A stretch of DNA of 28,483 nt. Source: a virus (Duplodnaviria; Heunggongvirae; Uroviricota; Caudoviricetes). Position 1 is the first letter of the stretch. The number at the start of each line of letters is the position of its first letter. The notes below the pieces were generated by a model. That model saw only the letters and a list, made by a program, of their open reading frames with translations, did not search any database and was not told the DNA's origin. Where the stretch lies: IMG/VR virus record IMGVR_UViG_3300025011_000026. The stretch is one strand, 5' to 3'. The position numbers were made by a program, and so were the translations under genes. Of this stretch, positions 168 to 25,607 are shown one piece after another.

Positions 168-647
168 TCACAAACTCCCAATCATACACAATTTTCCTTC
201 AGAAATCTCACTAGGTGTTGGATATTTTATATTGGGTGTAAGATCAATATTAATACTACGGAATGAGTCCGAAATTAACTCGCTACAGATAATTGAATTT
301 GTATTAAAATAAGGCAATATTATATTTAGCTTTAGTCGAATATATTCCCACAGAATCAACTTATAATCATATTTCTCACCAATTTGCTTAACCAAATAAT
401 TTATAATTCTTTCTCTCTGAAATCCATTCAGCTCCAAACACCTATAAACATCTATCCTCCCTTTATATTCTTCTAAATTATTGTATCTAACATCATACCA
501 TCCTGCCTCAATAATCGTTCCATTTTTAGCATCAGTGAGAATCGCCGAATGTGAGTAGATTGAATTTTCAACTTCACAAATTGTTTCTGAAATAATTCCA
601 TTTCCTTTGCCTTTTATTAATAAAATATCACAAGGCATTAATTCCAT
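168..647 (-). CDS. Permuted papain-like NlpC/P60 amidase (YiiX/YaeF-like)
   Basis: PCDILL...YSHSAI...IIEA...IGEKYDY...ICSELI: His precedes the catalytic Cys, the permuted arrangement. RBS AAGGAGGTG. Confidence 0.85.
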   Translation of the reverse strand: MELMPCDILLIKGKGNGIISETICEVENSIYSHSAILTDAKNGTIIEAGWYDVRYNNLEEYKGRIDVYRCLELNGFQRERIINYLVKQIGEKYDYKLILWEYIRLKLNIILPYFNTNSIICSELISDSFRSINIDLTPNIKYPTPSEISEGKLCMIGSL

Positions 648-743: not shown

Positions 744-3356
744 TTAATTAAATAATTCCTCAATATCATTTTTCTCCAAATATATAAAATCTGCCTGAGT
801 GATAGGAAGATTAGATAAAACTGTCACTGTACAATCGTTCCGCAATAATCTTGCACGTCCCACAGCTTGGATCAATTCTGATTCTATAAGATATAATTGT
901 ATTTCTCTTAACATATTGTCGTCTGAAAATGTCTGAAAGAAAAATTCAAAGTTATTTCTTTTAATTTGCTTATACTCCATTTGAAAATCATTTAATCTAG
1001 GAGTTAATCCTAAAGCAGATGCAAATAGTGTATAAACAATAGGAGCAATGTGCGGAGTTCCTACAATAGCGATGTCTTGACCTCCATAAGCATCCAACCC
1101 AACAGAAGCTCCAAAAGTGGCAATTGTATTAAATTTGTCTGATAGATTTTTATATGTAATAGTTGGTTTATCTTGAACTAATTCCTGTGCCAATTTTAGT
1201 ATTTTAGGACTTTCTTTAATCTGCCATCTGCTAAAACTTCGTTGTGGATACTGTTCAATTTTTCCTTTGTTTTCTACATCCCCTAAATCTATAAAATGTA
1301 ATTTGTCGCCAAATATATGTTTATATATTTTTTCATTGGCTGTAGCACTGAGAATAATAGTATGTTTGTCTGCTAAACTATTTCTTACGACAAAGTAAAT
1401 TTTATCTTGAGAATTAGGATTAAATTCATTACTACTTTTAATAAAATGCGAACAATTTAAGAAACCTAATATATTAGTTGTTGCCCCACTTTCAATAACT
1501 ACTTGCTCTATATTTTTAGCATTTTTAAATACATAAGTAGGCATAGTTTGCACTTCATTAGTTGGTGCTTTCTTTATTAATTCTAATATTGTATTTATTA
1601 TATCTTGATCTTCTTTTGATTTAAAATTATGCATTATTAATTTAGTAAAATCCGAAACTTTAATATGATTTTGTTGTATTAGAATATTTACAATATCTTC
1701 ATCAATTATTAATCTTTCATTTTTATCATCTCTTAAAAACATTAATTTTTGATGAGTTGTAATCAGTGTCCCAACATGATTTTTACAAACATCCATTTGT
1801 TTTAAATAATCCAATAATTCTGGAATATTTTCTAATTTAGCTATAGATTTTATATACGCAGACGCAGAATTAATTGCTCCTATAGAATATAATCTATTTA
1901 TTTTACTCTTATGCTCTGGTTTTAAATTTTCGGGCAAACTAGGAGTGGCTACTACATTAGTATTTCCAGCACTAATCATACGTTCTAAAACCTCAGTTTT
2001 CAATTTATGATTAGGAACAGCTATTGTGGTGTTCTGAACATCTAAATATAGTTCTGTTTTACCTATACCTGTTGGTGCTTTTATTACATGTATTTTATCA
2101 TCTTTAATAACTTTTAACATTTCCATTATTTCTTTAAATTCTGCTTCTGCTACTTCTAATGATTTTAAAACTGGTTGTTGTAATATATTAATCTTTCCAC
2201 GAGGGATTTTGCCTTGGAATATCATATTAATCCCATGTTCACATTCATTAGCGAATGGACAAAAATAATTGCAGCTTTGTGGTTTATAATTCATTTTATT
2301 AATATAATTAAAATAATAATTCCATTTATCTTCGTCATAAATATTATTTTGAGATATTATTTTTTCTAATTCTGTTCTACCACCTTCAACCAATAATAAA
2401 TTTGTTGCCATACCAAAAATTTCAAGATGATATGCCCAATATTCATTTTGACACATTTCTTTAAATAATTTACAATATGTAGATAGTTTATCAAAGTCAT
2501 ATCTTCTAATTAATTTATCTCTTTTAACCTTTTCATTATCTACATTATATTTAATCTTCTTAGGTTTATCTTCCTTATTATTCATAATAATATCATCATC
2601 TTTCCTATTCTCTTTACTAAAATAAATAGTATAGTCAAAAAGTACAGAACTTGAACACGTCCTATTAGTATATAATAGGAGTGGAGGTGTGGATGTACTT
2701 TCTTCAACTTTTTCTTTAATGATTTTAGGATATCCATTAATCATATCAACACCTACATCAGAACAAAATGTTTTAATCTTTTTTAAATAATTATTTTCCA
2801 TTGTTAGAGTAAAATAATGCACTAATCCTTCAATTAAATTTGGTATATTTATAATTTTATCATAATCACTATATATTAACTCCTTACCACCAAAGAAAAT
2901 TCTGGCACCATCTTTACAAGCCTTATCTGTCTCTGGAAACAAATTCATCAATGCTAATTGCACCAAATTCCTTACTCTTACGTCTTCCACATCATGTTCT
3001 AATACAAATACAACTCTGAATTTATTATTGTCCACACTAGAGAAAGTAGTATAAACAAAAGCTGGTATTATGTTATATTTCTTACATCTTTCAATCATAT
3101 CTTCAAAGGAAATTCCATCATCGAAATCTAATCCAAAGAGTCTTTGCGATTGAAAGTTTTCATTTAGTCTTCTTCCATTTTTAAAGGTAGCAGGACACCA
3201 ACTCTTACCATAAGGTTGAACTAAATTGTTTGCTATCTCTTCAATTTCCATATCAACTATATTTTCTGGTATACGTTTACTTATGATTCCTATTTCACCC
3301 TTTTGTGGTTTACAACTGTAACATACATTGTCTAAAGATAATTTCATTTTCAACAT
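744..3356 (-). CDS. Primase-helicase fusion: AEP/PrimPol-like N-terminus, Cys-rich PriL-like middle, SF2-like helicase C-terminus
   Basis: LDFDDG, YTTFS, KFRVVF and DKACKDGARIFFG resemble AEP motifs. The middle has C...H...YKPQSCNYFCPFANEC. Helicase motifs: Walker A APTGIGKT, Walker B IIDED, ILSATA, and motif VI QAVGRAR. Confidence 0.72.
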   Translation of the reverse strand: MLKMKLSLDNVCYSCKPQKGEIGIISKRIPENIVDMEIEEIANNLVQPYGKSWCPATFKNGRRLNENFQSQRLFGLDFDDGISFEDMIERCKKYNIIPAFVYTTFSSVDNNKFRVVFVLEHDVEDVRVRNLVQLALMNLFPETDKACKDGARIFFGGKELIYSDYDKIINIPNLIEGLVHYFTLTMENNYLKKIKTFCSDVGVDMINGYPKIIKEKVEESTSTPPLLLYTNRTCSSSVLFDYTIYFSKENRKDDDIIMNNKEDKPKKIKYNVDNEKVKRDKLIRRYDFDKLSTYCKLFKEMCQNEYWAYHLEIFGMATNLLLVEGGRTELEKIISQNNIYDEDKWNYYFNYINKMNYKPQSCNYFCPFANECEHGINMIFQGKIPRGKINILQQPVLKSLEVAEAEFKEIMEMLKVIKDDKIHVIKAPTGIGKTELYLDVQNTTIAVPNHKLKTEVLERMISAGNTNVVATPSLPENLKPEHKSKINRLYSIGAINSASAYIKSIAKLENIPELLDYLKQMDVCKNHVGTLITTHQKLMFLRDDKNERLIIDEDIVNILIQQNHIKVSDFTKLIMHNFKSKEDQDIINTILELIKKAPTNEVQTMPTYVFKNAKNIEQVVIESGATTNILGFLNCSHFIKSSNEFNPNSQDKIYFVVRNSLADKHTIILSATANEKIYKHIFGDKLHFIDLGDVENKGKIEQYPQRSFSRWQIKESPKILKLAQELVQDKPTITYKNLSDKFNTIATFGASVGLDAYGGQDIAIVGTPHIAPIVYTLFASALGLTPRLNDFQMEYKQIKRNNFEFFFQTFSDDNMLREIQLYLIESELIQAVGRARLLRNDCTVTVLSNLPITQADFIYLEKNDIEELFN

Positions 3357-3411
3357 CTCGCTTTCTTTTTTAATTTAGTTTATTGTTTTATTCCCTCGCC
3401 CAAAAATAGAA

Positions 3412-3605
3412 AACTAGCAGGATAAGATGCGAGTTATCTATTAATAATGAATGGCCTATCCATTACTCCTGCTAGTTGTGTGTAATATTTCAACACAAAT
3501 AAATCTCATCCAATTAAGAATGAGATTACTTCTATTGAAATATTTTTACTGTTTTTGATAAATCGTGGCACATCCTATTAGAGAAAATTAATCCCCTAAT
3601 AGGAT
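3412..3605 (-). other. Array of three long inverted repeats (structured leader/ncRNA or origin-like region)
   Basis: Perfect arms AACTAGCAGGA/TCCTGCTAGTT (3412-3422/3467-3477). AATATTTCAA/TTGAAATATT (3484-3493/3535-3544) with nested AATCTCAT/ATGAGATT. ATCCTATTAG/CTAATAGGAT (3572-3581/3596-3605). Confidence 0.6.
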
Positions 3606-3830: not shown

Positions 3831-3856
3831 AAAAGAGAGGATATTTCACCTCTCTT
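3831..3856 (-). terminator. Intrinsic terminator after the tail-fibre chaperone
   Basis: Minus strand AAGAGAGG-tgaaatat-CCTCTCTT followed by TTATT. Confidence 0.7.
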
Positions 3857-3938: not shown

Positions 3939-4352
3939 TTAGAAATTTATTAAAGATGCATCTTCAATGCTTTCACAAGCATCAATATCTGACCAACATT
4001 CATGTAATCTTTCCTGATTAACCCATTCCCAAATATTAATATCAATAAGCAATTGTTTTATTTGTGCTTCATCTAATCTTAAAATAGTATCATCTTTTGC
4101 AGAAATGGTAACAGGATATTGAACAATTCCATTACTGACACTAATAAATAGTTTCATCCACTTCATTTGATCAAAATCAGAATATCCATACAATAATTCT
4201 TCTCCTGATGTTGAGGATTTGAATCCAGATTTAACAGTTGAATAATATGAATCATTAATCTGATTCTTTTTCCAAACTTTATAATATTCTAAATCTGTAG
4301 GAATATGAAGTTGGCTGACTTCTGTATATATTCCATTATCTAATATTTGCAT
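3939..4352 (-). CDS. DUF4376-like tail-fibre assembly/chaperone protein
   Basis: The pattern WKKNQIN...SGF...YGYSDFDQMK...LDEAQIKQLLIDI...IDACESIEDASLINF is typical of DUF4376-type proteins downstream of tail fibres. RBS AAGGAG. Confidence 0.65.
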   Translation of the reverse strand: MQILDNGIYTEVSQLHIPTDLEYYKVWKKNQINDSYYSTVKSGFKSSTSGEELLYGYSDFDQMKWMKLFISVSNGIVQYPVTISAKDDTILRLDEAQIKQLLIDINIWEWVNQERLHECWSDIDACESIEDASLINF

Positions 4353-4660: not shown

Positions 4661-5071
4661 TCAACCAATGTCTACATATCTTCCAAAACAATTTGTTTCC
4701 AATAATAAATCATATGCTTTTCTAAAATTTCCTTCACATATGATAAGTGCTTTCTTAATATCCATAATACCATGTCCAGTAAGTCCACGAAATTCTTTTA
4801 CCATACTTGTGGTTATATTCGTTGTTTTATAATCTATTGAATTCAACTTTTTTCTATATTTAGGAGCGTGTAATTCTTCTATATAGCATCCTGTATAGTA
4901 TCCACAATCACATTTAAGAGTTAAACCGCAATCTGTACCATAAATACCTTTGATATTATCATAGAAATCTTGTGTTGCTCCTATGATTGGAACCATACCA
5001 AGAGTAATTATTTCATCACTCTTGGTTTCATAATGTTTATTGCAAATTGGACAATCTGCCGTTAATAACAT
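4661..5071 (-). CDS. Cys-rich (Zn-binding) protein fused to an EF-Ts N-terminal (UBA-like) domain
   Basis: N-terminal CPIC plus DCG..KCDC..GC. The C-terminal ITTSMVKEFRGLTGHGIMDIKKALIICEGNFRKAYDLL aligns without gaps to the EF-Ts N-terminus (E. coli [38 protein letters not shown]). Confidence 0.8.
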   Translation of the reverse strand: MLLTADCPICNKHYETKSDEIITLGMVPIIGATQDFYDNIKGIYGTDCGLTLKCDCGYYTGCYIEELHAPKYRKKLNSIDYKTTNITTSMVKEFRGLTGHGIMDIKKALIICEGNFRKAYDLLLETNCFGRYVDIG

Positions 5072-5096
5072 TATTATTTGTCACTTCTTTCTTAAA

Positions 5097-8000
5097 TTAA
5101 CCTAACGCTCCTAGTAATTTAGTCACATACTTTGTAGTTACACCAATATTTGCCCTAGTCATCACAATTCTCTGTGCTATTTGACTACCAACTGGAGCAG
5201 ATATTATATATTGATCTTCTTTTGTGTCAACATCAATTACTGTAGTCTTTTTAGTAGGAGTTAGATATGTCTCATTTCCTGAATTTATGATTGAGAATTT
5301 AGAGTCAATTGTGAAATCAGAAGAATTACTATAAGTTAGCCAAGACGCAATTTGTCCTGAACTTGTAGCAGGAGTGATATTATAAACTACTGATTCTTCT
5401 AACAACCCTATGGTAGAGCTATCTGTCCAAACACCTCTAAATTTCACTGCTCCTGTCTGATAATCAGTATAAATACATAGTGGATCAGTGAAATTTTGAT
5501 AATTAGAACACATTGACACATTCGGAGTAGAGCCGTTGCTAAAACTTGTTAAGGCCATAGGAGATCCCCATGAACTTGTATAGATAATTCTGTATATATT
5601 TACATAGGATGACGCATTATACATATTATACATTACATAAATTACATTATTGGTGTCTACAGATATAGATGGGTTAACAGATCCAGTAGTAGTATTTCCA
5701 GTCGTTATTTTGATCATTCCAGACCAAGTAACCCCACCATCAGTTGACTTAGAGTACCTAATGTTATGTTGGGAGCTATCTGTTACATCATACCCATCCC
5801 ATACTACATGAATAACTCCTACGTTATCTACTACTGCACAAGGATTGGATTGGCTATAGGAAGTTCCAAGATAAACATCCTTATTAGCTTGAACTACATT
5901 GTTATTAATTGATGTTGAATGAATTGATTTTGTTGTTCCACCTCTTTGCCATACTATTGTTACATTTCCGTCTTGCTTAACTACAATACAAGGGTTTGTG
6001 CATAGTATACCAGAATCGTTATAGGTTGTAATCTGTGTCACAGCACTCCAAGTAACCCCACCATCTGCACTCTTTAAATATCTGATATTGAAACTACTAG
6101 AATAGGCAGGAACTTTAGAAGAATTGGCAAAATACAAATATCCCAATGAATCAATTGTTAATGTTAATCCTTCACTAAAACTAGTTACTGTATCTATTGC
6201 AACTTTACTACTATTCTTATCAACATTTGCAACTGTTGTAGTATCTATAGCAACCGAATAAGCAATTGTTGCTGTATTAAAAACTACATATATAATATTA
6301 TTAAAACTCACCATGCTTGGTTTACATCCAGACGTTGCACCTGATATGAAACATAACGCTCTAAATATTTGAGTTGATGTTTCCCACAGTTGCAATCGAA
6401 TTGTTCCGTTATTATTTTCTATTGCTACTATATTACCATTTGATAATCTACAAGGTCTACCGTTAGCAGACGTTGTATAGGATGAATTTACTGCAGTTAA
6501 TGGAGTAGAGAAATCATAAGTTGTTATTCCCTCAAATCCTTCCGAAAACCCTAATCTACCATTTACAGTATCAACATTTCCTAAACTACGATAGATTAAA
6601 ACATTCGTTTTATATGAGTGTTGTAGAGGTGTTACTTCTAGGTGAGGAGTGAGGGTTGTTTGGGTGAAGATGCCACGGAATTTTACTGAAGATGTTTGAT
6701 TGTCTTGGTAAATACAGATTGGGTCGGTAAAATTATGATAATTAGAACAAGTTGAGGGATATTGATTACTACTAGTAGTATTGGTAGTTAATTTAACTAC
6801 AATTCCCCAACTACTTCCTGAATATATAATTCTTCTCACATTATAGTTTCCATTTGTTGCATCTGATCCAACCCACAAAATATAGATACTACCACTATCA
6901 TCATAGGTGATTGAAGGCCAAAATTGTTGATACGTATTTCCGCTTGTCAATTTATCATGTCCTGTTGTACCATCTGCTTTTGTCCACGTATTTCCGCCAT
7001 CAGTGGATTTAGCACAACGAATATTTCCAGCAACTCCATCAACCGCATCTTTTCCATACCAAGTAACCCATAAAATCCCACTTTGATCGGTTATGATGTC
7101 TGGTGAGGATTGGGCATATGGGCCTCCATTATAAACTACTTTATTACCCCAATTAGCATCTCCAGTTGATAAATCATGATAAGTAACATTATTATAAAAA
7201 GTTGTTGCTACACCAATAAAATAACCACTATTATTTGCATTATATATAAATAATATATAAGGAACATCGTCTCTTAATCTTATTGAAGGACTTGTAATAG
7301 TATGACCAGTTGTATTCAAAGTTGTAACTTGAACAACACTACCCCACGTTACACTACCATCTACAGCAGATATAGTGCCTTTTACATACCTGATATTGAA
7401 GGAATTGGGGTATGAGCTATTTTTTGAAGAAAAGGTAGCATGTAGTTCTGTGCCTGTTGGGTTTATTGCTAGGGAGCAACCTGTGCCGAAGGATGATTGA
7501 CCTGTATCTGGGACGTTAGATGCAGGGACGGTACTAGCAACTGTAGTAGCATCGAATAACCAGAAATAAGTTGCAGTACCCCCAGACATTGTACCTAATG
7601 AATATAGCATCGTTCCATGACTAACTATACTAAGATACTGATAGTTTCCTCCACTTGTGACTGCCAATTCACTCCATGTTTGACCGTTATCTTTAGAAAC
7701 TTTCCAATGTGCTTTTGCATCAGAAGTATTAATAACAAAAACTATCAACCATCCATTACTTAAAATTTGCGGTCTAGCAGATGCCATTGTTGTATCTGCG
7801 GTTGCAACAACAGTAGTAGGCGTACTCCTATCATGAGTCACGCTACTCTCACTAACTCCACCATTTGTAACAGTAACATATTCTTTACTTACATCATCCT
7901 GAATACTAATTTCCTGCCCTGTTTGAAACCACTTAGTTAATGCAGTTGATACATCAACTTTAGATATTATATTTGTATCACCTGCCGTTAATGGGGATGT

Positions 8001-8213
8001 TGCTATGGTTTTAGTTGTGTCTAGGATTCCTGCTGAATAAGTTGTGATTCCATTAAAGAGGTCGAAGTACCCTGCCGTCATGCCTGATGTTCGACTAGAG
8101 ATTGCAGCAAGGGCAGCACCGTTTGCAGCGAGTTTTGTCATGTCTAAATATTTCTGTTTACTTATTCCACTTAAATATCCACCTATTTGTAAAGCATTTT
8201 CTAGATTACTCAT
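5097..8213 (-). CDS. Receptor-binding/tail-spike protein with two tandem BNR (Asp-box) beta-propeller domains
   Basis: Asp-boxes SKDNGQTW, STDGGNTW, SADGGVTW, STDGGVTW. Internal duplication (CSNYHNFTDPICIY..VKFRG versus CSNYQNFTDPLCIY..VKFRG). Lies at the end of the tail-tip cluster. Confidence 0.8.
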   Translation of the reverse strand: MSNLENALQIGGYLSGISKQKYLDMTKLAANGAALAAISSRTSGMTAGYFDLFNGITTYSAGILDTTKTIATSPLTAGDTNIISKVDVSTALTKWFQTGQEISIQDDVSKEYVTVTNGGVSESSVTHDRSTPTTVVATADTTMASARPQILSNGWLIVFVINTSDAKAHWKVSKDNGQTWSELAVTSGGNYQYLSIVSHGTMLYSLGTMSGGTATYFWLFDATTVASTVPASNVPDTGQSSFGTGCSLAINPTGTELHATFSSKNSSYPNSFNIRYVKGTISAVDGSVTWGSVVQVTTLNTTGHTITSPSIRLRDDVPYILFIYNANNSGYFIGVATTFYNNVTYHDLSTGDANWGNKVVYNGGPYAQSSPDIITDQSGILWVTWYGKDAVDGVAGNIRCAKSTDGGNTWTKADGTTGHDKLTSGNTYQQFWPSITYDDSGSIYILWVGSDATNGNYNVRRIIYSGSSWGIVVKLTTNTTSSNQYPSTCSNYHNFTDPICIYQDNQTSSVKFRGIFTQTTLTPHLEVTPLQHSYKTNVLIYRSLGNVDTVNGRLGFSEGFEGITTYDFSTPLTAVNSSYTTSANGRPCRLSNGNIVAIENNNGTIRLQLWETSTQIFRALCFISGATSGCKPSMVSFNNIIYVVFNTATIAYSVAIDTTTVANVDKNSSKVAIDTVTSFSEGLTLTIDSLGYLYFANSSKVPAYSSSFNIRYLKSADGGVTWSAVTQITTYNDSGILCTNPCIVVKQDGNVTIVWQRGGTTKSIHSTSINNNVVQANKDVYLGTSYSQSNPCAVVDNVGVIHVVWDGYDVTDSSQHNIRYSKSTDGGVTWSGMIKITTGNTTTGSVNPSISVDTNNVIYVMYNMYNASSYVNIYRIIYTSSWGSPMALTSFSNGSTPNVSMCSNYQNFTDPLCIYTDYQTGAVKFRGVWTDSSTIGLLEESVVYNITPATSSGQIASWLTYSNSSDFTIDSKFSIINSGNETYLTPTKKTTVIDVDTKEDQYIISAPVGSQIAQRIVMTRANIGVTTKYVTKLLGALG
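5425..7835 (-). repeat. Two roughly 370-390-aa paralogous propeller units within the RBP (about 7835-6662 and 6520-5425)
   Basis: Paired motifs: DRSTP/DFSTP, RPQILSNG/RPCRLSNG, SFNIRY/SFNIRY, FTDP..IY..Q...VKFRG. An 18-nt exact repeat CCAAGTAACCCCACCATC occurs near 5726 and 6048 (two Asp-boxes of the C-terminal unit). Confidence 0.8.
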
Positions 8214-10795: not shown

Positions 10796-11965
10796 TTATA
10801 TAACCACCGTTCCATTAATATTATTTATATATTCAATCTTATCATTTATCAACTTTTTATATGTATTATCTTTATCATCTGTCCAATAAGGTATTTCTAA
10901 ATAAAAATATCCTTGCATTTTAGCAAAGATACGTTTATATCTGTCTTTTAATTTTTGATAGTGTAATTCATATTCTGGCGTAGTATTATTTTTCCTTGCT
11001 TGTAAATAATGAAACCATGATAATTCTGTATGTTGTTTTCCCTGTGTCTCTATCAAAAGTTTTAACTCTTGCAACTCATTATCATAGGGCATTCTTCCTC
11101 TTTTATTTTTTATCTTAGGGGTTTTTGCAATTATTGAACATTTAAATTCGTGTAATATAGTAAAATTTAAAGATTCTAAATAAGAGCCAACTTTTTGTTG
11201 AAGGAAACTAGAATTCATTTCATTAGTACACTCTGGACATCTAAAACCATATTTAACTGACCCACTTATACTTCTAAAATAATCTTCATGTTTTCCTTCG
11301 GGACATTTCCACCAAACTTTTTTATTACTTTTAGGCATATAATCATATGAAGATTTTTCATTTTTATCTAACCATATTTCCAATACTTTAGGATATAATG
11401 CTCCTAAACTATCTAATGAATGAACTTTTTTACCATTACAATAAGGACATCTGCTTCCATTAACAAAGTTGTTACATTTTATATCATAACTCCCATGATA
11501 ATCTTTTTCTTGGCATTTGATCCAAATTCTAGTATCGCTTCCATAGGTAATATTCCAGGGGTTAATACCTAATTTGTTATTCTTACTCCAATCAAAATAA
11601 TTATCTAAAAAATCTCTCTCTATATTATTTATACCCCATTCAGCAAACGATTTACTATTTATTAATTTGATTTGATTATCTTTTTCTCTACCAAATAATT
11701 TATTGGCACATTTTTTGCAATAATATTTACCATCTTTTTTTGCACGTTTTAAATAATCAGCCCATCTTACTTCTTTTAATAATTCTCTACAACAATCACA
11801 TTCTACATCTACTTTAGCATGAGAACCATCTTGTAAATCTTCTACTTTAACTTCAAATTCATCTTTCCATTTGGTAAACGTATAACCTTTAGATTCATAC
11901 CATGTTTTTGTTTTATATTCCCATTTCATCCTAACTTCTTTTGTTATTAATCCCATAATTATCAA
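10796..11965 (-). CDS. Free-standing putative homing endonuclease: zinc-ribbon repeats (DUF4379-like) plus C-terminal PD-(D/E)xK/Vsr-like nuclease
   Basis: WIKCQEKDYHGSY...CPYC and WWKCPEGKHEDY...CPEC repeats; YDNEL..LKLLIETQGKQH...KDRYKRIFA...YLEIPYW. The likely start is ATG 11956. Confidence 0.8.
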   Translation of the reverse strand: MIIMGLITKEVRMKWEYKTKTWYESKGYTFTKWKDEFEVKVEDLQDGSHAKVDVECDCCRELLKEVRWADYLKRAKKDGKYYCKKCANKLFGREKDNQIKLINSKSFAEWGINNIERDFLDNYFDWSKNNKLGINPWNITYGSDTRIWIKCQEKDYHGSYDIKCNNFVNGSRCPYCNGKKVHSLDSLGALYPKVLEIWLDKNEKSSYDYMPKSNKKVWWKCPEGKHEDYFRSISGSVKYGFRCPECTNEMNSSFLQQKVGSYLESLNFTILHEFKCSIIAKTPKIKNKRGRMPYDNELQELKLLIETQGKQHTELSWFHYLQARKNNTTPEYELHYQKLKDRYKRIFAKMQGYFYLEIPYWTDDKDNTYKKLINDKIEYINNINGTVVI

Positions 11966-14544: not shown

Positions 14545-14574
14545 AAAAAGAGGACAATGATTAAATCACTGTCC
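14545..14574 (-). terminator. Terminator-like hairpin overlapping the TMP stop codon
   Basis: Minus strand GGACAGTGA-tttaa-TCATTGTCC then TCTTTTT. Confidence 0.55.
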
Positions 14575-17500
14575 ATATTGTACTTTTGCTTTTTGTGCTG
14601 CCAACAATGGAAGACTTTTAAAGGCATCCTCGATCCCACTTGCATCTAAAACATTTGGGAATGATATATTGTCAATATTAAAATTCTGTTGAACTGTTTG
14701 GCTACTCTGTTTCAAAACTCCACTAATATTTTTCATAATATCCATAGGTCTAAAAACATCAGACATATTCCTTACTGCTAATACTGAATTATTCATTATC
14801 TTAGTAATATCTAATCCTTCAGGCAAACCCTTTACTAATTCATATAATTTCTTAGCTTGACCTGAATTAAAATATACTTCAGAAGATGATGGACTTCCGT
14901 GAACAATCGAATTTCCAGAATAATCTACAACTCCACCATCTTTATATGAACCAGTCTTACTAGCTTTAAACTCCTGTACAGTTCCTCCAGCAACAATAGT
15001 GTAAGTCTGACCTTCTTGATATGAATTGACTGGTGTTACTGCAAAATTACTTCCATTTGTTTGCGTAACTGTTACAGGAACAACATTGCCTTGACTATCA
15101 GTAACTTTAACATCAGGAGTTCCACTTTGAGCACTTGAGTATCCTACATTCCAAACTTTATTTACATTTACTGTTGGAACACTACCATTAGCATTATTCG
15201 CATTCATTTCTGCTGTTTGTGATTCATAAGATGAATTAGCTCTATTTTCTTGTGCAGATTGCGCTGATGCTTGACTAGCAGCCTGAGCATTGGCAGCTTC
15301 TTCTTTTGCTTTTGCCTCGGCAGTTTGTGCAATAAGAATCTCCTGTAATGCTTGCTGTGCTCTAACTGCCAACGCTTCCATATTGGTAACATAAATAGAA
15401 TATGCAGATTCAATATTATCTAAATTACTCTGTGTGGAAGCAAAAATATTATTCCACTCAGTAGAATTTATTAGATTCATATCGCCCATATATTCTCTAT
15501 TTAAGTTGGTCATATCTCTTTGAAAATCTTCGAAACTAGCATATTCACCGTTTAGTGCTCTATCCATTATAGTCTTAACTCTTGCTAAATACTTAGACTT
15601 TTCATCAAGTTTTTCTTGATCTGCTTTGTTAATTTCGTCTTGTTCCCAATTAATCAAATCAACTTGACTATTCGCTAATTCTTCTTGCGCTGATGCAATT
15701 GCTTCTTGATCTGCAACATAGGTAAAATCCCATGTACCATCTGCATTCTGTGTCATTTGTTGGATGGTTTTTTGATCCATTAGATTTTTTACTTTTAATT
15801 GCAATTGTTGAATATCAAGTTGTTTTTGCAATCGCTCGATAGAAGATTTTTCAATGTCTCCCTGGGAATTCAATAATGCATTTTGTTCAGCAGTTAAAGT
15901 TAATCCTTCAGATTGAATTTGTGCTCTAATTTTACTTACTTCTAAATCTTTTTCTGCACCTGAAAGATATTTTTCTTGTAAAGCAATTCTCTGATTTAAA
16001 GCATCTCGTGCTTCTTGTTCTGTGCTACCATTAAATAGAGTTTTTTCAATCGCTTCATATTGATCTTCAAAAGTTTTAGCAAGTTGTTTATTTTGAAACT
16101 CTTTTTCAGAATTAATTAAACCCTTCATTGCAAGTTCTGCTTCATTTAACTGAGTTGTTAAATCTGAGACTTTTGTTGCTTTTTCTCCTGCAGTTAAACT
16201 TGTGTCTGCAAGAGTTTCAGCAATTTGCTGTTTAATAGATGCAATTATTGATGCTTCTTGTGCCATTTGTGCTTCAATATTTGCAATACTTCCAGCAAAA
16301 TCAGTTTCATCAAGTAATTGTAATAAAACTTGTAAATCAGATATTGCATCTTTAAATGGTTTTACTAAATTATCAAACTTAATATTAGCAATTTCATTTG
16401 CAGTTTGCTTAATTGCAATATTTGCATCAATAAGGTCTGAATTGACATCACTTAATTTATCAGATGCTTGATTAAACTCCTGAGAATTTGCTAATGCATT
16501 TGCTAAATCAGTTTCAGTGTAATTAGGATCAACTTTTGCTAAATCTGCTTTCACACTTGCTTCGGCTTCAGCTAAATCTGCTTCTAATTGTGTTTTTTCA
16601 GCTTGAAGAGAATCTACTTTGGTTTGATTTTCTTCTTGAATCGCTTGCTCAGTTGCTAATTGCTCTTCAATGCTCGCTCCAATTAATTTTTGATATTCTA
16701 ATGTTTTTTGCAAATATGAAACTTGAGCTTCAGCTTTTGCTTGTGCTTTGTCAAACCCTTCATATTCAGCCTCAAATCTCTCCTTAACCAATTGCTTTAT
16801 TGAGAGCTGCGCAGATTTTTGAGCTTCAAAATTAGATTTGATTTTCCCTAAAACTTCTCTAGTCTGTTCGTTGTCATCATATGTTATATTACCTTCAGAA
16901 TCTTCATTTTTATACTTTTTAATAGAATCATATAACTCATCAATATTTGCAGATGCTACAGTTATTGCTTCTTGATAAAGATTTATTTTCTGTTCAATAT
17001 ATTGTGCAGAATTTAAATTAGCCAATGCTTTTTGAGTTGCTATAAGTTTCTGAGTAAAATCTGTTTTTGAAGCTTTCTGACCATCAAGAATAGCTTGGTC
17101 TGACTCTGCTTTTGTTACTAATTGCTCATTTTTAGTTGTTTCTTTCTCAATATTTTTTTGTGTTCTATCAACAGCTCTTTCAGCACTTCTTGAACCAACA
17201 TATTTATCCTTATAAGTGCCATCTTCATTCAAATATTTTGATAGAGTTTTTTCATATCCAGCAATTTTTTTATCTGATTTTTCTACAGCAGTATTATCTT
17301 TTGCAACAATTTTTGTTGTTTTAGCAATTTCTTTAGAAACATCAGAAATTGATTGAGCAAATTCATCTAAACTATCATTGAGGAAATCTATATCGGTGAT
17401 ATGAGAACCAGTACCATCAGCATATGCAGGAATTTTACCATTGTTAGATTTGAGTATTCTTTCAGTTTCATCATTGGGAATTACTTGTGTTCCTTTAGGA

Positions 17501-20500
17501 AGATTAACTAATTTTGGCCCAGAATTATCACCTAACATAATACTTCCATTAGGGAGAACTATTAATTCTCTTTTACCATTTGCCTCATCATCGACAATTG
17601 CTAGTCCTCCAGGATGATTTTTTGTTCCTTTGGCATAACCCTCTGGTTTTTCTCCCTCTACAGTTTGAACATAAATTGTATGAATTGATGATGTTGGTTG
17701 CTGTAACATTAATATGGATTGTGTTGCAGCAATATCATCAGCATTTATTGTAATAATGGTTTCATACTGTTTACTAATTAATGCTAATAATTTATCATCT
17801 GCAAGTTTTGTATCAGCATCTACAACAATATCTTTCATTTGATCTTGAAGAGTTTGAATACCTTGAGTTGCTTCTGCTGTGATTTCTATCTTTGGAATTG
17901 CTAATACTTCAATTGAAGCTGTTTGAATTGCTTGCATCTTATTATTAAAATCATCTTGGGATATTTCACCAGTATCTAATTTTAATTTAAGAGAATCTTG
18001 AGCATTTTTAGCAACATTAGATAATGTTTGAACTTGATTTTGGATTTGTTGATAATAAGATAATATTTGATCTTTATTTTCAGGAGTGACTTCACCTAAT
18101 GCTGTTATTTTGGATTTTAAGTCAGAGATTGTTGTGTTAGCTAGGGATACTGCATTTGTGAATTCATTGTGAATGAAATCTACAAAAGTTGTAGGTGGTT
18201 TGAAATCATATATATCTTCATTAGGTTTTGGAATTTCTGCGATTGCTTCTTCAACGCTTTTATAGTCAATACGAGGGACAATTTCCATATCAATTTTAGG
18301 AACAGCAGAAGATATTCCACCTTTTGATAATTGTTGTTGTTGATCTACGGCATCGATTTTTGACATGATTTCTTGGAGATTTTGGTCAGTGGATTCGAAT
18401 AGTTTTTCTTGTCTCATTTTATCTACAGATTTAGCATACTCATCTTCTGCTTTCTTGGCATCAGCAGCTAATTTTGCAGATTGAATCATTAACTCATTAA
18501 ACTTTTTCTGACCTTCTAATGTTGTAGGATTACCAAGTTTAGACAATTCTTCTTGAAGCTCTGATATTGTTTCTGCCCATGTTTTTGTTGCAGAGACGTT
18601 TTTCTTTATCCATGATTCGATATCTAGGTTTTGGAAGGAGGATTCTAAGGTGGCTGTTTCTTTCGAAGATAGGAGAGCAGATTGTTCTTCTAGGGATTTG
18701 ATTAAGTCTTCTTTGGATTGTTGTGTAAGGGCATTTTGGGCTTCTATAGTAGTATTAATAGCAGTAGTATTATCCGTCCACGCCTTTTGTAGCTTAGATA
18801 ATTTATCAAAAGTTGCAGACATTTGTTTTTGTGTTTTAACTGAACTAGCATTCCATTGTTCTTGATAATAAAGGGTTGCTTCGCCATTGGGATCTATCCA
18901 TTGAGAAGTATTTTGAAAACCAGACTGAGTTGAAACCTTTGCAAATTCTTTTTCAACTTTATCTTTTGCTTCTCCTAATTGTATAATTTGAAGTTTTTGG
19001 TTTTCAATAAGATCATTTGTAATGGAAAGTATTGCATTGTAATCTTTAGCAGATTTTGCAGTTGCTAATTGTTTCTCTAGTAATTTTCCTTGTTCTATTG
19101 TTTGCTTTACTTGAGTTTGGAATGAACGAATTAATGATTCTTCAATATCGACTTGTTCTGCTAGGGAAGAGGTTGGTTCTTTTTTGTCTTTTTCTTTTGA
19201 ACCCATACCAATGCTTGAGAAATCAATACCTGAAGTACCTTTTAACGCTATATTATCCATAGATTTAGCGATTTTACTCATTTGATCTGAATACTCTTTT
19301 AATTTAGAATACTGAGCCTTCATTTCAGGAGTAATAGATTGTTCATTGCCGTTTGCATCTACAACAGTTCTTCCACCATCTAAAGGTTGTGCTACTAATG
19401 CTCCTGCCTTATAATAATTAGCCCAAAGTGATGCTAAATTTTTTATTAATTCTTCGTCTACTTTAGCTTTAGCTTCTGCAAGTGATTTATATTGAGATAA
19501 ATCACCATTATATAATTTAGATAAGGCATCCATTACTTGAGCATTACCTAAAACTTTTGCAGTATAGAATTCTTCACTATCCATTAACATTTGAGCGTAG
19601 GCTTTTCTAGAAACTTCTTGTTCTTCTTGTATTATATTGGTAAGTTCTTCATGTAATCCCTTTTCATCACCAAGCATTGAAAGAAGTTGTTTATGTTTTT
19701 CTGACAACTTTACGATTGTATCAATATTGAATTTTCCATTATCGTCATATTCTTTCAATGCAGATTGCACTTCTGAAATTGTTGATGCTGATTTAGACAT
19801 TGTTTCTTGAAGAGTTTTTAAAGATGATGAAAAATCAGATACTTTTTCTTCTGCTTTTTTTACCTCTGGAAGAGTAAAATCATTATTAAGTTGTTTTATC
19901 AATTCAGTAACGATTGGAATTGGGACACCTAATTTAGTTAATTGTTCTCCAACACCACCTAAAGAATTTTTAAGATAATCCTGAATTTCAACTGTTGATT
20001 TTCCTTCTTCTGACATCGCATTCATGTGAGCAGTAATATCTGAAATAGTTTTTGTTATATTTATGCTTTTTAACGCAATAGTGGTAGATGTAAAATCACT
20101 CATAGAACCCTTGGCTTTAATTACACTTGAAGTTAAATCATTTTGCATACTTTTACTTAATTTATTTGTAGAATCACTTAATTGATCTACTGCGATTGCA
20201 CCAGTTACAAAAGTTGCTGTTTCTGATTGAATAGTTGCTTCTAATATTGCTTTTTGTTTTGCTACTCCATCAATCAAATCTTTATAGTCTTGTATCCCTT
20301 TTTCTCTATTTAAGCTAGGGGTTTCTCCAGAACTCATCTTATCCATATTTATTTTATATGATTCTAGTTTCTTATTCAGTGAATCCATTTCTTTTTGGTT
20401 GTCTTGTAATTTTTTTAAACTATCTGTTCCGGATACATCAAATGTTGTAGCTAAAGACTTTTGTTGAGTTTCTAAAAGTCTTTCTTTTTGCTCTGTCAAT

Positions 20501-22674
20501 TGCTTTATATAAGCAATATCTAGTTCGGCGGCTTGCCCCTCTGCCGTGAATCCAGTAACAGACCCTTCAAAAAGAGAACTTAACTTTGCGGTTGCAGTGG
20601 ATAATTTGTCCTTTTGTTCAGCAGTTTTCAAAGTAACTTTTGATAATTCCTCATAAGTAGATATTAGATTTGGAATTTCCTTTGTTTCTGCTTTTAATTT
20701 ATTTATACTTTGAGTTAAATCATCAACAACTTGTTTTTGTTTTTGGGATGCTGAGTCTATTCTAGAACTAAAAATGTCAAACAAACCAATTGCTGTAGTT
20801 AGAACTACGGCAATAATACCAATCGGGTTCGACAAAAATGCAACCTTTAAACCATTTAGGGCCAACTTTAAACCATTAGTTGCTATTGCAGCATTTACTT
20901 GTGCTGTAGTCCATCCTAATGCTTCTCCTTTAGCAATTATCATATATCTAATATTATCTGCTAATGCAATATTTAGAGTCTTAGTAGATGTAACCCATGC
21001 CATAATAGTAGATGTAATTGCAGTTCCTTTCCATAAGGCAAGAACCGTCACTACAGACATTATTATTGTGGACAGATTTCCAAAAGCATCAATTAAAGTT
21101 GCTGTTGCATCTATTAGCCCCTTAATCACTCCAGAATCTAAAGATGACTGCCAAAAACTTTCCCACGATGCTTTGAGTCTATCTAGTCTGGCAGATGTAG
21201 ATTCTTGGTATATAGCAAATTTTTGTTCAGATGTGCCGGATGCATTAAGGGCATTTTCATAATTTTTTAATGAATCTGCATAATTGTTTAATAATGTTAA
21301 TCCTCTATTTCTTTGAAATGTCCCGAACATCGTAGTTGTAATATATGCCTTTTCATTCTTGGATAATGTGTCAAATCTAGCCCCTACCATATCCATCACA
21401 TTTGCAAAATCTAATAACTGGCCTTGTGAATCAGTTGCTTTTATGCCAATATCTGATAAAGACTCTACAACATCATTTAATTTTGTAGAGTCTTCAGAAT
21501 TAAATCCTGTACTTTTTATGGATTCATAACGGCTAATCGCGGAGTTTAAACTTCGTCCAATAGTTGACGCTGACTCTCTGGTTATACTGGAAATTGTTGC
21601 CAGCCACGATGCACTTTTTTCGAGAGAAATATTGCTACTCTCACTGGCTGATGCCACCCTCTGAAGGGCTTCTCCGATCTCATCTGCCCCTGAAGCCGTG
21701 GTATCTCCTAATAGTGCGAAAATATCAATAATTTTATTAACACTTTCTCCAGTAGCATTTGCAGTCGCTGTGATAATCGTATTGCTTTCTTTTAATGAAA
21801 TTGAACTGATTTTTGCATATTGAATTATAGACTTCATTCTATCTTCAACATCAGAATCAGATAAGCCCTGCCTATATAAATCAGCAGATGTTGATGCTAT
21901 TTCTCTTGTAGAAACAGACATTTCTTTACCAAGTTTATTATATGTTTGTGCCAATTTTTCTACTTCAACCTGAGTTTTCCCTGTTACTATACGAACTTGA
22001 TTAAGGGCATTGTCAAGTTCTGAAATATATGAAATTCCATTTTTTAGCTGATTTAGACTTCCGTAGACAAGATTCGTACTTATTCCCCAAATTGCGATCT
22101 TTTTAGCGGCTAAAGTGAGCATTTGACTAAAAGCATATCCATCTCTATTCGAGTTTCTAAATTCACCAGAAACCTGTGCAACCCTAGTTCTGAGAGTATC
22201 TAACTGCAAACCATATTGTCTAGCAGAAATTTCTCCTCTTCTAAATGCATTTTCCATGTCTCTTAATCTTGCTACTTCTGAACTAACTCTTGTATCTGAA
22301 AAAACTTTATCTTTATTTATTTTTAATCGATCAAGAGAATTATTAATTCTTTTTACCTGATTTTCAATATCTTGTGCATTTAATATATTAGAACCGCTAT
22401 TTCTATTAGCATTTGTAAGTCTACTCATATTTGTTTGGATTGTTCTTTGTGCATTAGAAATACTAGCGTTATCAACCGTTACTTTTAAATTTATTTTTAC
22501 AGACTTTGATAGTTTTTCAATATCTTGTTTAAACTTAGCAATCGATTGTTGAGATAAGTCTAATGTAGATTTCAAATTTATTCTAAGATTTTTTAGTTGT
22601 TGGTCTATTTTTGCTTGAGATAAATCTGAAATATCTAATTTTCCTTTAATTAATATTGATAATTTATTATCCAT
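14566..22674 (-). CDS. Tail tape measure protein (TP901-type N-terminal domain), 2702 aa
   Basis: ELDNALNQVRIVTGKT...YNKLGKEMSVSTREIA...ADEIGEALQRVAS...TGRSL is the TP901 core, followed by long A/L/K/E-rich helical regions. RBS AGGAGG. Confidence 0.95.
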   Translation of the reverse strand: MDNKLSILIKGKLDISDLSQAKIDQQLKNLRINLKSTLDLSQQSIAKFKQDIEKLSKSVKINLKVTVDNASISNAQRTIQTNMSRLTNANRNSGSNILNAQDIENQVKRINNSLDRLKINKDKVFSDTRVSSEVARLRDMENAFRRGEISARQYGLQLDTLRTRVAQVSGEFRNSNRDGYAFSQMLTLAAKKIAIWGISTNLVYGSLNQLKNGISYISELDNALNQVRIVTGKTQVEVEKLAQTYNKLGKEMSVSTREIASTSADLYRQGLSDSDVEDRMKSIIQYAKISSISLKESNTIITATANATGESVNKIIDIFALLGDTTASGADEIGEALQRVASASESSNISLEKSASWLATISSITRESASTIGRSLNSAISRYESIKSTGFNSEDSTKLNDVVESLSDIGIKATDSQGQLLDFANVMDMVGARFDTLSKNEKAYITTTMFGTFQRNRGLTLLNNYADSLKNYENALNASGTSEQKFAIYQESTSARLDRLKASWESFWQSSLDSGVIKGLIDATATLIDAFGNLSTIIMSVVTVLALWKGTAITSTIMAWVTSTKTLNIALADNIRYMIIAKGEALGWTTAQVNAAIATNGLKLALNGLKVAFLSNPIGIIAVVLTTAIGLFDIFSSRIDSASQKQKQVVDDLTQSINKLKAETKEIPNLISTYEELSKVTLKTAEQKDKLSTATAKLSSLFEGSVTGFTAEGQAAELDIAYIKQLTEQKERLLETQQKSLATTFDVSGTDSLKKLQDNQKEMDSLNKKLESYKINMDKMSSGETPSLNREKGIQDYKDLIDGVAKQKAILEATIQSETATFVTGAIAVDQLSDSTNKLSKSMQNDLTSSVIKAKGSMSDFTSTTIALKSINITKTISDITAHMNAMSEEGKSTVEIQDYLKNSLGGVGEQLTKLGVPIPIVTELIKQLNNDFTLPEVKKAEEKVSDFSSSLKTLQETMSKSASTISEVQSALKEYDDNGKFNIDTIVKLSEKHKQLLSMLGDEKGLHEELTNIIQEEQEVSRKAYAQMLMDSEEFYTAKVLGNAQVMDALSKLYNGDLSQYKSLAEAKAKVDEELIKNLASLWANYYKAGALVAQPLDGGRTVVDANGNEQSITPEMKAQYSKLKEYSDQMSKIAKSMDNIALKGTSGIDFSSIGMGSKEKDKKEPTSSLAEQVDIEESLIRSFQTQVKQTIEQGKLLEKQLATAKSAKDYNAILSITNDLIENQKLQIIQLGEAKDKVEKEFAKVSTQSGFQNTSQWIDPNGEATLYYQEQWNASSVKTQKQMSATFDKLSKLQKAWTDNTTAINTTIEAQNALTQQSKEDLIKSLEEQSALLSSKETATLESSFQNLDIESWIKKNVSATKTWAETISELQEELSKLGNPTTLEGQKKFNELMIQSAKLAADAKKAEDEYAKSVDKMRQEKLFESTDQNLQEIMSKIDAVDQQQQLSKGGISSAVPKIDMEIVPRIDYKSVEEAIAEIPKPNEDIYDFKPPTTFVDFIHNEFTNAVSLANTTISDLKSKITALGEVTPENKDQILSYYQQIQNQVQTLSNVAKNAQDSLKLKLDTGEISQDDFNNKMQAIQTASIEVLAIPKIEITAEATQGIQTLQDQMKDIVVDADTKLADDKLLALISKQYETIITINADDIAATQSILMLQQPTSSIHTIYVQTVEGEKPEGYAKGTKNHPGGLAIVDDEANGKRELIVLPNGSIMLGDNSGPKLVNLPKGTQVIPNDETERILKSNNGKIPAYADGTGSHITDIDFLNDSLDEFAQSISDVSKEIAKTTKIVAKDNTAVEKSDKKIAGYEKTLSKYLNEDGTYKDKYVGSRSAERAVDRTQKNIEKETTKNEQLVTKAESDQAILDGQKASKTDFTQKLIATQKALANLNSAQYIEQKINLYQEAITVASANIDELYDSIKKYKNEDSEGNITYDDNEQTREVLGKIKSNFEAQKSAQLSIKQLVKERFEAEYEGFDKAQAKAEAQVSYLQKTLEYQKLIGASIEEQLATEQAIQEENQTKVDSLQAEKTQLEADLAEAEASVKADLAKVDPNYTETDLANALANSQEFNQASDKLSDVNSDLIDANIAIKQTANEIANIKFDNLVKPFKDAISDLQVLLQLLDETDFAGSIANIEAQMAQEASIIASIKQQIAETLADTSLTAGEKATKVSDLTTQLNEAELAMKGLINSEKEFQNKQLAKTFEDQYEAIEKTLFNGSTEQEARDALNQRIALQEKYLSGAEKDLEVSKIRAQIQSEGLTLTAEQNALLNSQGDIEKSSIERLQKQLDIQQLQLKVKNLMDQKTIQQMTQNADGTWDFTYVADQEAIASAQEELANSQVDLINWEQDEINKADQEKLDEKSKYLARVKTIMDRALNGEYASFEDFQRDMTNLNREYMGDMNLINSTEWNNIFASTQSNLDNIESAYSIYVTNMEALAVRAQQALQEILIAQTAEAKAKEEAANAQAASQASAQSAQENRANSSYESQTAEMNANNANGSVPTVNVNKVWNVGYSSAQSGTPDVKVTDSQGNVVPVTVTQTNGSNFAVTPVNSYQEGQTYTIVAGGTVQEFKASKTGSYKDGGVVDYSGNSIVHGSPSSSEVYFNSGQAKKLYELVKGLPEGLDITKIMNNSVLAVRNMSDVFRPMDIMKNISGVLKQSSQTVQQNFNIDNISFPNVLDASGIEDAFKSLPLLAAQKAKVQYGQ

Positions 22675-24455: not shown

Positions 24456-25607
24456 TTAAATATTTATCTTTAATTCAATACCATGTTCTCTAAACTTGTT
24501 TAATAACCCTTTTAATCCTTTTGTCATATCTTTTGGATAAAGCTCCAATAATAATAAACCATTGTCTGAACATATTATTTGTTTTTCTTGCATTCTCTTT
24601 TTATAAAATTCTCTCCTTTCCATTCCAAAATACTCTACAATTATATCGTTTGATAAAAACCAATCGCATCTTTTATATCCACATCTAATATCATTTGTAA
24701 AGGTTGAATAATAAACTTCTTTTTCATATGGCAATTTATTGTCTATAAACAAGTTTGTAATTATTAATTCTGGTTGAGAAAGACACAAATCATTATTTTT
24801 TGATCTATATGTCTTAGAAGAATACATATTGCCATCATAATTAGGCTCTAACCCTGCTAATTGACACGCATTAATATATCCATCAAAACAACGTCTATAT
24901 GTATGATAATGTGCCATATCTTTGTTTTCGTTTATTTCATGTGAAAGAGGCGTTCTTCCTAAAACTTGTGCAAATTCTTTTAAATCGTCTATTAATTTTT
25001 GGTTATCGTATCTAATGTATAAATGTTCCTCAGCATCTTTATTCAAACCTAAATTCTGTCCTTGTGCCATAATCGAACCGGAAGTTCTATTGAATATCTT
25101 GCTTAATTCTTCATTTGTTTTTAATGCATATAAACTTTTAAGCTTTATTGAATCTTCATCACTCCATTTTTCACGACTAACCAACCCTATTCGATTAGCC
25201 TTAGTTACAACAGAAGACTCTGTCCTTCCTGGTAAGTATTTAATAAGTTCTTTTGTCGGTATTAATTCATAATATTTACACAACATATATATTTCATATT
25301 CCGTATATTCATTAAAAACTAACCGCTCTATTTTTAAATTACAAGCATAATGAGAAATTGTATCTTTTGGGAAAGGTGATAATTTTTCCAATAAAATATC
25401 CCAAGATGCAGTTGGATAATATTTATATAATAATTCTGTATGTTTATCTGTCCACTTGTTTTTCTTTTTAGGAATATTATTTTTCCTCAATATGTAATAT
25501 ATATAATTTACATCATTTAATTGATACTTTTCAGCTATTTCCTTTAACGGAATATCATTTATATAATCCCTTATTACTCCGTCATAATCTTTCTTTTTAC
25601 TTGCCAT
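24456..25607 (-). CDS. Free-standing putative homing endonuclease: HTH, Myb/SANT-like repeats, homing-endonuclease-associated repeat and PD-(D/E)xK nuclease
   Basis: KWT.KHTELL..YY and KWSDEDS.KL..LY...GRT.SS..TKA.RIGL repeats; L.DDL.EFA..LGRTP...E.....Y.TY.RCF..Y..AC..AGL; C-terminal RCDWFL...IIVEYFG...K...C...LLELYP. Confidence 0.75.
   Translation of the reverse strand: MASKKKDYDGVIRDYINDIPLKEIAEKYQLNDVNYIYYILRKNNIPKKKNKWTDKHTELLYKYYPTASWDILLEKLSPFPKDTISHYACNLKIERLVFNEYTEYEIYMLCKYYELIPTKELIKYLPGRTESSVVTKANRIGLVSREKWSDEDSIKLKSLYALKTNEELSKIFNRTSGSIMAQGQNLGLNKDAEEHLYIRYDNQKLIDDLKEFAQVLGRTPLSHEINENKDMAHYHTYRRCFDGYINACQLAGLEPNYDGNMYSSKTYRSKNNDLCLSQPELIITNLFIDNKLPYEKEVYYSTFTNDIRCGYKRCDWFLSNDIIVEYFGMERREFYKKRMQEKQIICSDNGLLLLELYPKDMTKGLKGLLNKFREHGIELKINI

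Follow-up and report, generated by a model that had tools for sequence, protein, structure and literature searches.

A phage protein that carries the N-terminal head of elongation factor Ts behind a zinc-ribbon-like domain: a candidate ligand of host EF-Tu

Background

Elongation factor Tu (EF-Tu) is among the most abundant and best conserved of bacterial proteins. It is increasingly seen as a hub of phage-host conflict, being cleaved by Lit and by the type IV Thoeris caspase and serving as a scaffold for Avs7, and Q-beta replicase recruits it together with elongation factor Ts (EF-Ts) (PMC12803255). Phage proteins that resemble parts of EF-Ts have been described. The truncated, EF-Ts-like gp247 of Caulobacter phage Colossus keeps the core subdomain N with the catalytic Phe (PMC3556154), gp21 of Lactococcus Ceduovirus resembles the C-terminal or dimerisation part of EF-Ts (PMC7150918), and both have been proposed to modulate host translation (PMC3556154, PMC7150918). 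In Sinorhizobium phage phiN3, a 59-aa protein is annotated as 'Elongation factor Ts-like protein' (BFVD). Here we describe another arrangement, found in the IMG/VR virus record IMGVR_UViG_3300025011_000026 (28,483 nucleotides, the whole of which we call the window): a gene at 4661..5071 on the minus strand whose product, P0001 (136 aa), carries the EF-Ts N-terminal domain (TS-N), or head, behind a Cys-rich domain.

P0001 differs from gp247 and gp21, neither of which, as their papers describe them, is an N-terminal head or is fused to a zinc ribbon. The novelty of P0001 lies in its architecture of zinc-ribbon-like domain, linker, TS-N and aromatic tail, in its position in the late region of the genome and in the existence of natural alleles that have lost the ribbon. 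Literature searches found no functional study of phage stand-alone EF-Ts heads. A catalytically dead EF-Ts docking head, recurrent in unrelated phage lineages and under purifying selection, would make a simple candidate for a viral EF-Tu ligand. From sequence comparison and structural modelling we put the chances at about even that P0001 docks on host EF-Tu around helix D.

Results and discussion

The gene encodes an EF-Ts head without the EF-Ts core

The gene is an open reading frame (ORF) of 136 codons followed by a TGA stop. P0001 is identical on 9 metagenome contigs and has full-length homologues, P0002 and P0003, that are 82-83% identical. The gene and its surroundings divide as follows (AF2, AlphaFold2; pLDDT, its per-residue confidence).

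5084..5093, minus strand: purine-rich ribosome-binding stretch AAGAAAGAAG, 12 nt 5' of the ATG, read from the sequence
4877..5071, minus strand: predicted Cys-rich, zinc-ribbon-like N-terminal domain, residues 1-65
5042..5053, minus strand: knuckle C7-x-x-C10 within the Cys-rich domain
4904..4912, minus strand: knuckle C54-x-C56 within the Cys-rich domain, with C48 as an additional Cys
4820..4876, minus strand: linker and pre-domain helix, residues 66-84 (19 residues), with an AF2 helix at 70-77
4691..4819, minus strand: TS-N, the UBA-like EF-Ts N-terminal domain, residues 85-127, from TIGR00116, PDB, AF2 and Foldseek
4664..4690, minus strand: short aromatic C-terminal tail, residues 128-136, of the form [C/D/Y]-[F/Y]-G-x-[Y/F], pLDDT ~30

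The NCBIfam model TIGR00116 (tsf) aligns through its positions 3-43 with residues 85-125 of P0001 at an E-value of 2.1e-6; the score of 27.2 bits lies below the curated equivalog cut-off of 104.05. A phmmer search of the PDB places residues 85-122 without gaps on residues 2-39 of E. coli EF-Ts (1efu_B, E 0.005), with 18 of the 38 columns identical when counted by hand, and bacterial EF-Ts heads are 47-60% identical to the P0001 domain. The T-G-x-G-M-M-D-x-K-K-A-L signature of the EF-Ts TS-N domain is present. A first reading of the window from its sequence alone (the sequence-only reading) had proposed a gapless match to the EF-Ts N-domain at 4816-4697, and these alignments confirm it, the interval being residues 86-125.

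Searched exhaustively with phmmer, 1.8 billion proteins yielded 35 matches at E <=0.001, including bona fide EF-Ts with whole-library E-values down to 1e-8, which is far beyond chance; most of those examined are EF-Ts or EF-Ts-head proteins. In the opposite direction, a profile built from eight phage proteins with bona fide EF-Ts left out (profile A2) matches residues 2-46 of E. coli EF-Ts at E 1e-13 and the EF-Ts of M. tuberculosis and T. thermophilus at 4e-11 and 4e-10, compared with 0.005 for the best generic UBA domain.

Structural prediction agrees with the alignments. AF2 models three helices (88-98, 102-111 and 116-125), with pLDDT 83-87 over residues 80-125. Every top Foldseek match in the PDB is an EF-Ts N-domain, taken from an EF-Tu:EF-Ts or Q-beta replicase structure and superposing with a root-mean-square deviation of 0.4-0.9 A at 45-50% identity; the best, 4pc1_C and 1efu_B at 0.4 A, have E-values of just 0.04-0.1 because the domain is short. 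UBA domains (c-Cbl, HHR23A, EDD, NAC) rank after EF-Ts. From sequence and predicted fold together, we regard the homology of the C-terminal domain to the EF-Ts N-domain as certain.

P0001 shares with the EF-Ts N-domains of solved structure (E. coli residues 1-54 in 1EFU and 4PC1; M. tuberculosis in 7VMX) the fold, at 0.4 A over 36-38 residues, the signature loop and the contact Arg and Lys. It departs from EF-Ts in having neither the PF00889 core with its TDFV loop nor the dimerisation/C-terminal module, and in placing the domain C-terminally, behind a Cys-rich domain and before an aromatic tail. The absence of the exchange core and TDFV loop, also part of the sequence-only reading, is upheld by the lack of any PF00889 match in P0001 even at E <=10, and the protein terminates about 10 residues (9-11) past TS-N. 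With neither core nor loop, P0001 cannot catalyse GDP/GTP exchange; judged by its sequence, it contains an EF-Ts head yet is no EF-Ts.

The aromatic tail is not found in EF-Ts, where its place is taken by the linker to the core. It is common to P0001, P0005 and P0027, which come from three phage lineages and have a mutual identity of only 35-48%; alignments also show the D-Y-K-T motif of the P0001 linker in P0005, a stand-alone relative.

A Pfam scan of P0001 at E <=10 listed neither UBA (PF00627) nor EF-Ts_N (PF25025), which P0021 and P0027 match under its cut-off; over the whole protein the best that Pfam offered was Zn-C2H2_12 (E 0.22), and no PHROG matched. A fold search of BFVD returned nothing significant. 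A PROSITE-like EF-Ts signature fits solely with L relaxed to F and was not used as evidence.

The residues that contact EF-Tu are largely kept

At an offset of 83, the P0001 residues equivalent to those of E. coli EF-Ts are R95 (R12), G101 (G18), I102 (M19), M103 (M20), D104 (D21), K106 (K23) and K107 (K24). The equivalents of R12, G18, M20, D21, K23 and K24 had already been noted as retained, and all are present. That homologues keep the EF-Tu-contact residues is seen in a set of 12 non-redundant TS-N proteins from phages: 11/12 have R12 and 9/12 have K23, while the K24 position is basic and the M19/M20 positions are hydrophobic in 12/12.

The part these residues play is known from M. tuberculosis, in whose EF-Tu:EF-Ts complex the counterpart of E. 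coli R12, EF-Ts R13, forms bonds with P114 and E155 of EF-Tu, K24 bridges EF-Tu D144/D145, and the R13A mutation disrupts the complex (PMC9529903). Helix D of EF-Tu (residues 144-156) is the site for both EF-Ts and the L7/L12 stalk protein (PMC5574714, PMC5770553).

The same conservation can be read in another way, which we hold to be possible though on balance doubtful: the captured EF-Ts head may have been re-purposed as a generic UBA-like module with a phage or host partner other than EF-Tu, the motif mainly keeping the fold and the hydrophobic loop-1 patch, a general UBA-like surface. P0001 does share the three-helix architecture and the loop-1 patch with the eukaryotic and archaeal UBA domains of c-Cbl, HHR23A, EDD and NAC, which are its next-best fold matches, and Pfam UBA and UBA_8 weakly match P0005 and P0022. 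Moreover, three phage homologues have N, H or L in place of K23, D21 is variable, the add-on domains differ by lineage (zinc ribbon, helical N-extension or the N-domain of L025), and the co-folding support for EF-Tu given below is weak. Set against this, the phage-only profile lies some 10 orders of magnitude nearer to EF-Ts than to any UBA domain (E 1e-13 against 0.005), Pfam UBA gives no match to P0001, and 11 of the 12 proteins, although their overall identity is just 35-50%, retain R12, a surface residue on which the EF-Tu complex depends in M. tuberculosis. To our knowledge, a ubiquitin system is not to be expected in the host. Should P0001 prove not to bind EF-Tu, it would exemplify a host translation-factor fragment exapted for another partner.

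Co-folding with EF-Tu

Residues 70-136 of P0001 were co-folded with EFTU_BACSU, the B. subtilis protein standing in for host EF-Tu. The interface score (ipSAE) was 0.52 (runs 0.52, 0.57 and 0.52) against 0.01 for the best control, which the tool rates as 'weak support'; the runs share >=79% of contacts, and the partner pLDDT is >=78. In calibration, the pass mark let through 58 of 80 solved complexes and 2 of 110 mismatched pairs, and the range at <=0.60 held just 7 of the 80 solved complexes plus both passing mismatches. Because EF-Tu:EF-Ts complexes have already been solved, the pass may be memory and would then speak for likeness rather than for binding of this copy.

TS-N is the selected core of the protein

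Comparison of P0001 with its 82%-identical homologue on the related contig L006 gives a synonymous divergence (dS) of 0.51 and a ratio of non-synonymous to synonymous divergence (dN/dS) of 0.205 overall; taken separately, the TS-N half gives 0.13 and the Cys domain 0.28. These values show purifying selection on the gene, strong on TS-N.

One could still suspect a decaying remnant of a captured tsf, or a spurious ORF, without function, as many short metagenomic TS-N 'proteins' are broken bacterial tsf and one of them, P0033, follows rpsB. For the present gene this is hardly credible, and the selection analysis effectively refutes it: dN/dS is 0.13-0.28 at a dS of ~0.5, the intergenic stretch with the ribosome-binding site is almost invariant among three diverged relatives, and the GC content of 30% equals that of the phage. 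The domain is, in addition, fused in frame to an unrelated conserved domain and has homologues in several phage lineages.

The CxxC...CxC pattern that had been read in front of TS-N is borne out, with C7 and C10, C54 and C56, and also C48, conserved in the full-length homologues P0002 and P0003. AF2 places beta-hairpins on the flanks of both Cys knuckles, but with pLDDT <50, too low for fold assignment. Structural neighbours in the Atlas are zinc ribbons and rubredoxin at template-modelling (TM) scores <0.5 and serve as leads only, and the Pfam scan of P0001 gave no zinc-ribbon family above cut-off.

Natural alleles of 101/102 aa are without residues ~31-65, and thus without the second Cys cluster, and keep TS-N intact. 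They occur on >=4 contigs from different samples: P0004 on two from ENA, and the L016/L017 alleles on two from IMG/VR (29 and 65 kb). In the L017 allele (6001-6309) the remaining CxxC has become CxxY through the change of C10 to Y. The TS-N half of the deletion alleles is 89% identical, with dN/dS of 0.1-0.17. TS-N outlasts the ribbon in these alleles, which makes it the selected core and the zinc-ribbon-like domain an add-on. The pattern suggests that the Cys residues act together as one candidate metal site, which decays once broken. The best explanation is that the Cys4, zinc-ribbon-like module is a lineage-specific add-on, conserved where it is whole, that modulates the protein rather than defines it.

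A possible EF-Tu-docking module

We propose that this accessory gene, lying between tail-fibre and lysis genes, encodes a captured TS-N head of bacterial EF-Ts in which the surface by which EF-Ts grips the EF-Tu G domain is intact, namely the equivalents of Arg12 and Lys23/24 and the hydrophobic G-x-G-[IM]-M loop. The protein would dock near helix D, the site also used by EF-Ts and L7/L12, and would there either compete with these two or exploit the abundance of EF-Tu by using it as a handle. The sequence-only reading had proposed a candidate EF-Tu-binding mimic, acting perhaps as a translation throttle, as a decoy that shields EF-Tu from defences such as Lit, or as an adaptor; for the mimic itself, the domain homology, the kept contact residues and the plausibility of docking sustain it, while for binding itself the support remains weak.

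Several points weigh against docking on EF-Tu. The co-folding pass is weak, was obtained with a stand-in EF-Tu and reports no interface. K23 is lost in 3/12 of the phage homologues and R12 in 1/12, and T-G-x-G and K-K-A-L are partly structural, forming the turn between helices 1 and 2, so that their conservation is no proof of an EF-Tu interface. In full EF-Ts the core supplies most of the EF-Tu interface, and P0001 is without that core. We know of no experiment in which an isolated TS-N domain binds EF-Tu. At 6-10% of the E. coli proteome, EF-Tu is so abundant that it is difficult to see an accessory protein throttling or blocking it stoichiometrically. Finally, the adjacency to tail-fibre genes, seen for P0005 as well, could point to a role in the virion or its assembly.

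Among the roles that EF-Tu docking could serve, shielding EF-Tu from Lit or Thoeris was judged unlikely on geometry. The cuts made by Lit and by the type IV Thoeris caspase fall within switch I of EF-Tu (R45, R59/G59-I60; PMC12803255), whereas TS-N contacts helix D and its surroundings (D144/D145, E155 and P114). A role as adaptor gains some colour from the varied add-on domains across lineages, and is weakened in this lineage by the natural variants that lost the zinc site and kept TS-N. Interference with complexes scaffolded on EF-Tu, such as Avs7, or the use of EF-Tu as a handle, is possible.

A broader proposal, which we consider unlikely as it stands, is that phages repeatedly capture the EF-Ts head as a portable module for docking on EF-Tu helix D, here combined with a zinc ribbon, for control of EF-Tu late in infection. 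Such control could act by blocking L7/L12- and EF-Ts-dependent cycling or by disarming EF-Tu-linked immunity (Avs7, Lit, the type IV Thoeris caspase), and these proteins would then form a new class that serves phages in counter-defence or host takeover and derives from a host translation-factor fragment. Binding to EF-Tu, if true, would by itself offer a ~45-residue tool to probe or block the helix D site of EF-Ts and L7/L12, and a new entry into phage management of translation or of EF-Tu-linked immunity.

Other phage TS-N proteins

The head is not confined to this phage. The closest stand-alone relative is P0005, a bare 74-aa TS-N protein encoded just 3' of Mtd_N-type receptor-binding genes in an unrelated siphophage. 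Proteins of 56-104 aa (P0021, P0022/P0038/L020 and P0027) are encoded in early or small-ORF phage regions; P0022, P0038 and L020 have a helical N-extension before TS-N. A conserved TS-N family of 53-58 aa occurs on ~10 IMG/VR contigs (L029-L038). P0001 has in common with the stand-alone domains of L029-L038, P0021 and P0027 a core-less domain with conserved contact residues. Those stand-alone heads are bare domains of 48-83 aa, often in early regions, whereas P0001, encoded in the tail-fibre/lysis region, has a zinc-ribbon-like domain of 65 residues and a linker of 19 in front of TS-N. Further combinations are seen on L025, a 210-kb contig on which a 118-aa ORF (1501-1635) has an unrelated 65-residue N-domain before TS-N, and on L039, a 168-kb contig whose 70-aa ORF (1501-1617) has TS-N followed by a C-terminal CPHC. 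A search for shorter relatives of P0001 found nothing.

Several groups of matches were set aside. P0007 (1681 aa, E 4.6e-8) is a repeat artefact in which 11 weak repeats, matching ADGRF3_N repeats, sum to the score. The large matches P0006-P0016 and P0034 proved to be genuine EF-Ts: polyproteins that also carry S1 domains, and no fusions of the kind sought. P0033, which follows rpsB, and P0012, which overlaps a continuing frame, are apparent broken bacterial tsf and were left out of the phage set. The 1812 short proteins returned by a word-index search with the phage profile give no count of phage stand-alone domains, their top 120 being mostly truncated or frameshifted tsf. The short 'stand-alone' EF-Ts_N proteins of the catalogue (P0039-P0151) are likewise mostly broken bacterial tsf with a canonical head followed by junk. 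With the catalogue so full of broken tsf, naive counts of stand-alone TS-N proteins are inflated.

Genomic context and host

The source phage is uncultured and known from aquifer and groundwater metagenomes, and the window covers a siphophage late region in which all large genes lie on the minus strand. The contigs of the source phage that were fetched are <=46 kb; the longest in the catalogue has 92,483 bases. The principal features around the TS-N gene are the following.

Minus strand: major tail protein with Ig-like domains, part of the structural module
24456-25607, minus strand: 383-aa protein among the structural genes, with weak matches to HNH endonuclease, D5-like regulator and DNA-binding PHROGs
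14566-22674, minus strand: tape measure, 2702 aa, PF10145 PhageMin_Tail
10796-11965, minus strand: homing-endonuclease-like gene, HNH/DUF4379 (treble-clef zinc finger), 389 aa, interrupting the tail/baseplate genes
Minus strand: fibre protein, 426 aa, preceding the 1038-aa tail fibre in gene order
5097..8213, minus strand: tail fibre, 1038 aa, with BNR/sialidase-like repeats (PHROG 21129, weak BNR matches), adjoining the TS-N gene upstream
5203..5230, minus strand: candidate sigma-70 promoter TTGACA-16-TATAAT within the 3'-terminal part of the tail-fibre gene and 131 nt 5' of the TS-N start codon
4356..4637, minus strand: 93-aa ORF downstream of the TS-N gene, no family match
3939..4352, minus strand: conserved 137-aa ORF with a weak tail-fibre PHROG match
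3833..3856: terminator-like hairpin after the 137-aa ORF, which would close a possible three-gene unit
Minus strand: 870-aa protein, between the 137-aa ORF and the papain-like amidase
168-647, minus strand: papain-like amidase of the permuted type, 159 aa, Peptidase_C92 below cut-off, PHROG 1128

The TS-N gene is found in every relative. It lies directly 3' of the tail-fibre gene in L001-L005 and L017, and on L006-L009 the contig breaks off within the upstream gene. This constancy raises the alternative that the protein is a tail-fibre assembly factor or virion-associated accessory, tied to the receptor-binding genes and not to translation. Wherever the upstream gene is complete the TS-N gene follows the tail fibre directly, P0005 has the comparable position behind its Mtd_N-type genes, and a tail-fibre PHROG has a weak match in the conserved 137-aa ORF nearby. 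We nevertheless find such a role improbable and give it little credence: P0021, P0022 and P0027 lie outside tail modules, in early or small-ORF regions, the fold is not known from any fibre chaperone, and the interval from the tail fibres to the lysis genes varies in content. L017 lacks the 93-aa ORF of the window, for which L006-L009 have a 46-aa ORF instead, and this marks the place after the TS-N gene as a variable one.

A phage moron, an accessory cassette transcribed independently, has a promoter and terminator of its own and varies in presence among relatives. The candidate promoter at 5203..5230 is the sole perfect sigma-70 consensus in the 28.5-kb window, and 13 of 100 shuffles give >=1; L017 keeps the -35 element and has TACAAT as -10, and in L006 the promoter is not kept. 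Given this partial conservation and the 13% shuffle rate, an independent transcription unit is possible.

At the DNA level the locus matched none of 50,697 phage records, and protein searches of the same records returned solely host-type tsf in poorly curated or contaminated 'phage' records and no relative of the fusion. Among 185,579 prokaryote species, represented by one genome each, no relative was found and hence neither a prophage nor a clue to the host. The 'clostridial' host of the sequence-only reading is a guess from the Firmicutes-like flavour of the domain, its sole basis, and is unproven.

At the lysis end, the 168-647 product may belong to a lysis module; past the end of the window, L001 continues with a Peptidase_C1/SPOR gene and an Amidase_3 endolysin gene. 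At the structural end, the 2702-aa tape measure implies an unusually long siphophage tail. On the related contig L006 a 412-aa DUF4379 gene (2309-3547) stands at a different place from that of the window, at the boundary between the fibre module and the lysis genes, and the different positions suggest a mobile endonuclease; the 24456-25607 product may, by its weak matches, be a second one. The 1017-aa orthologue of the tail fibre on L017 (2928-5981) has conserved N- and C-termini and a diverged centre, as for a host-range determinant.

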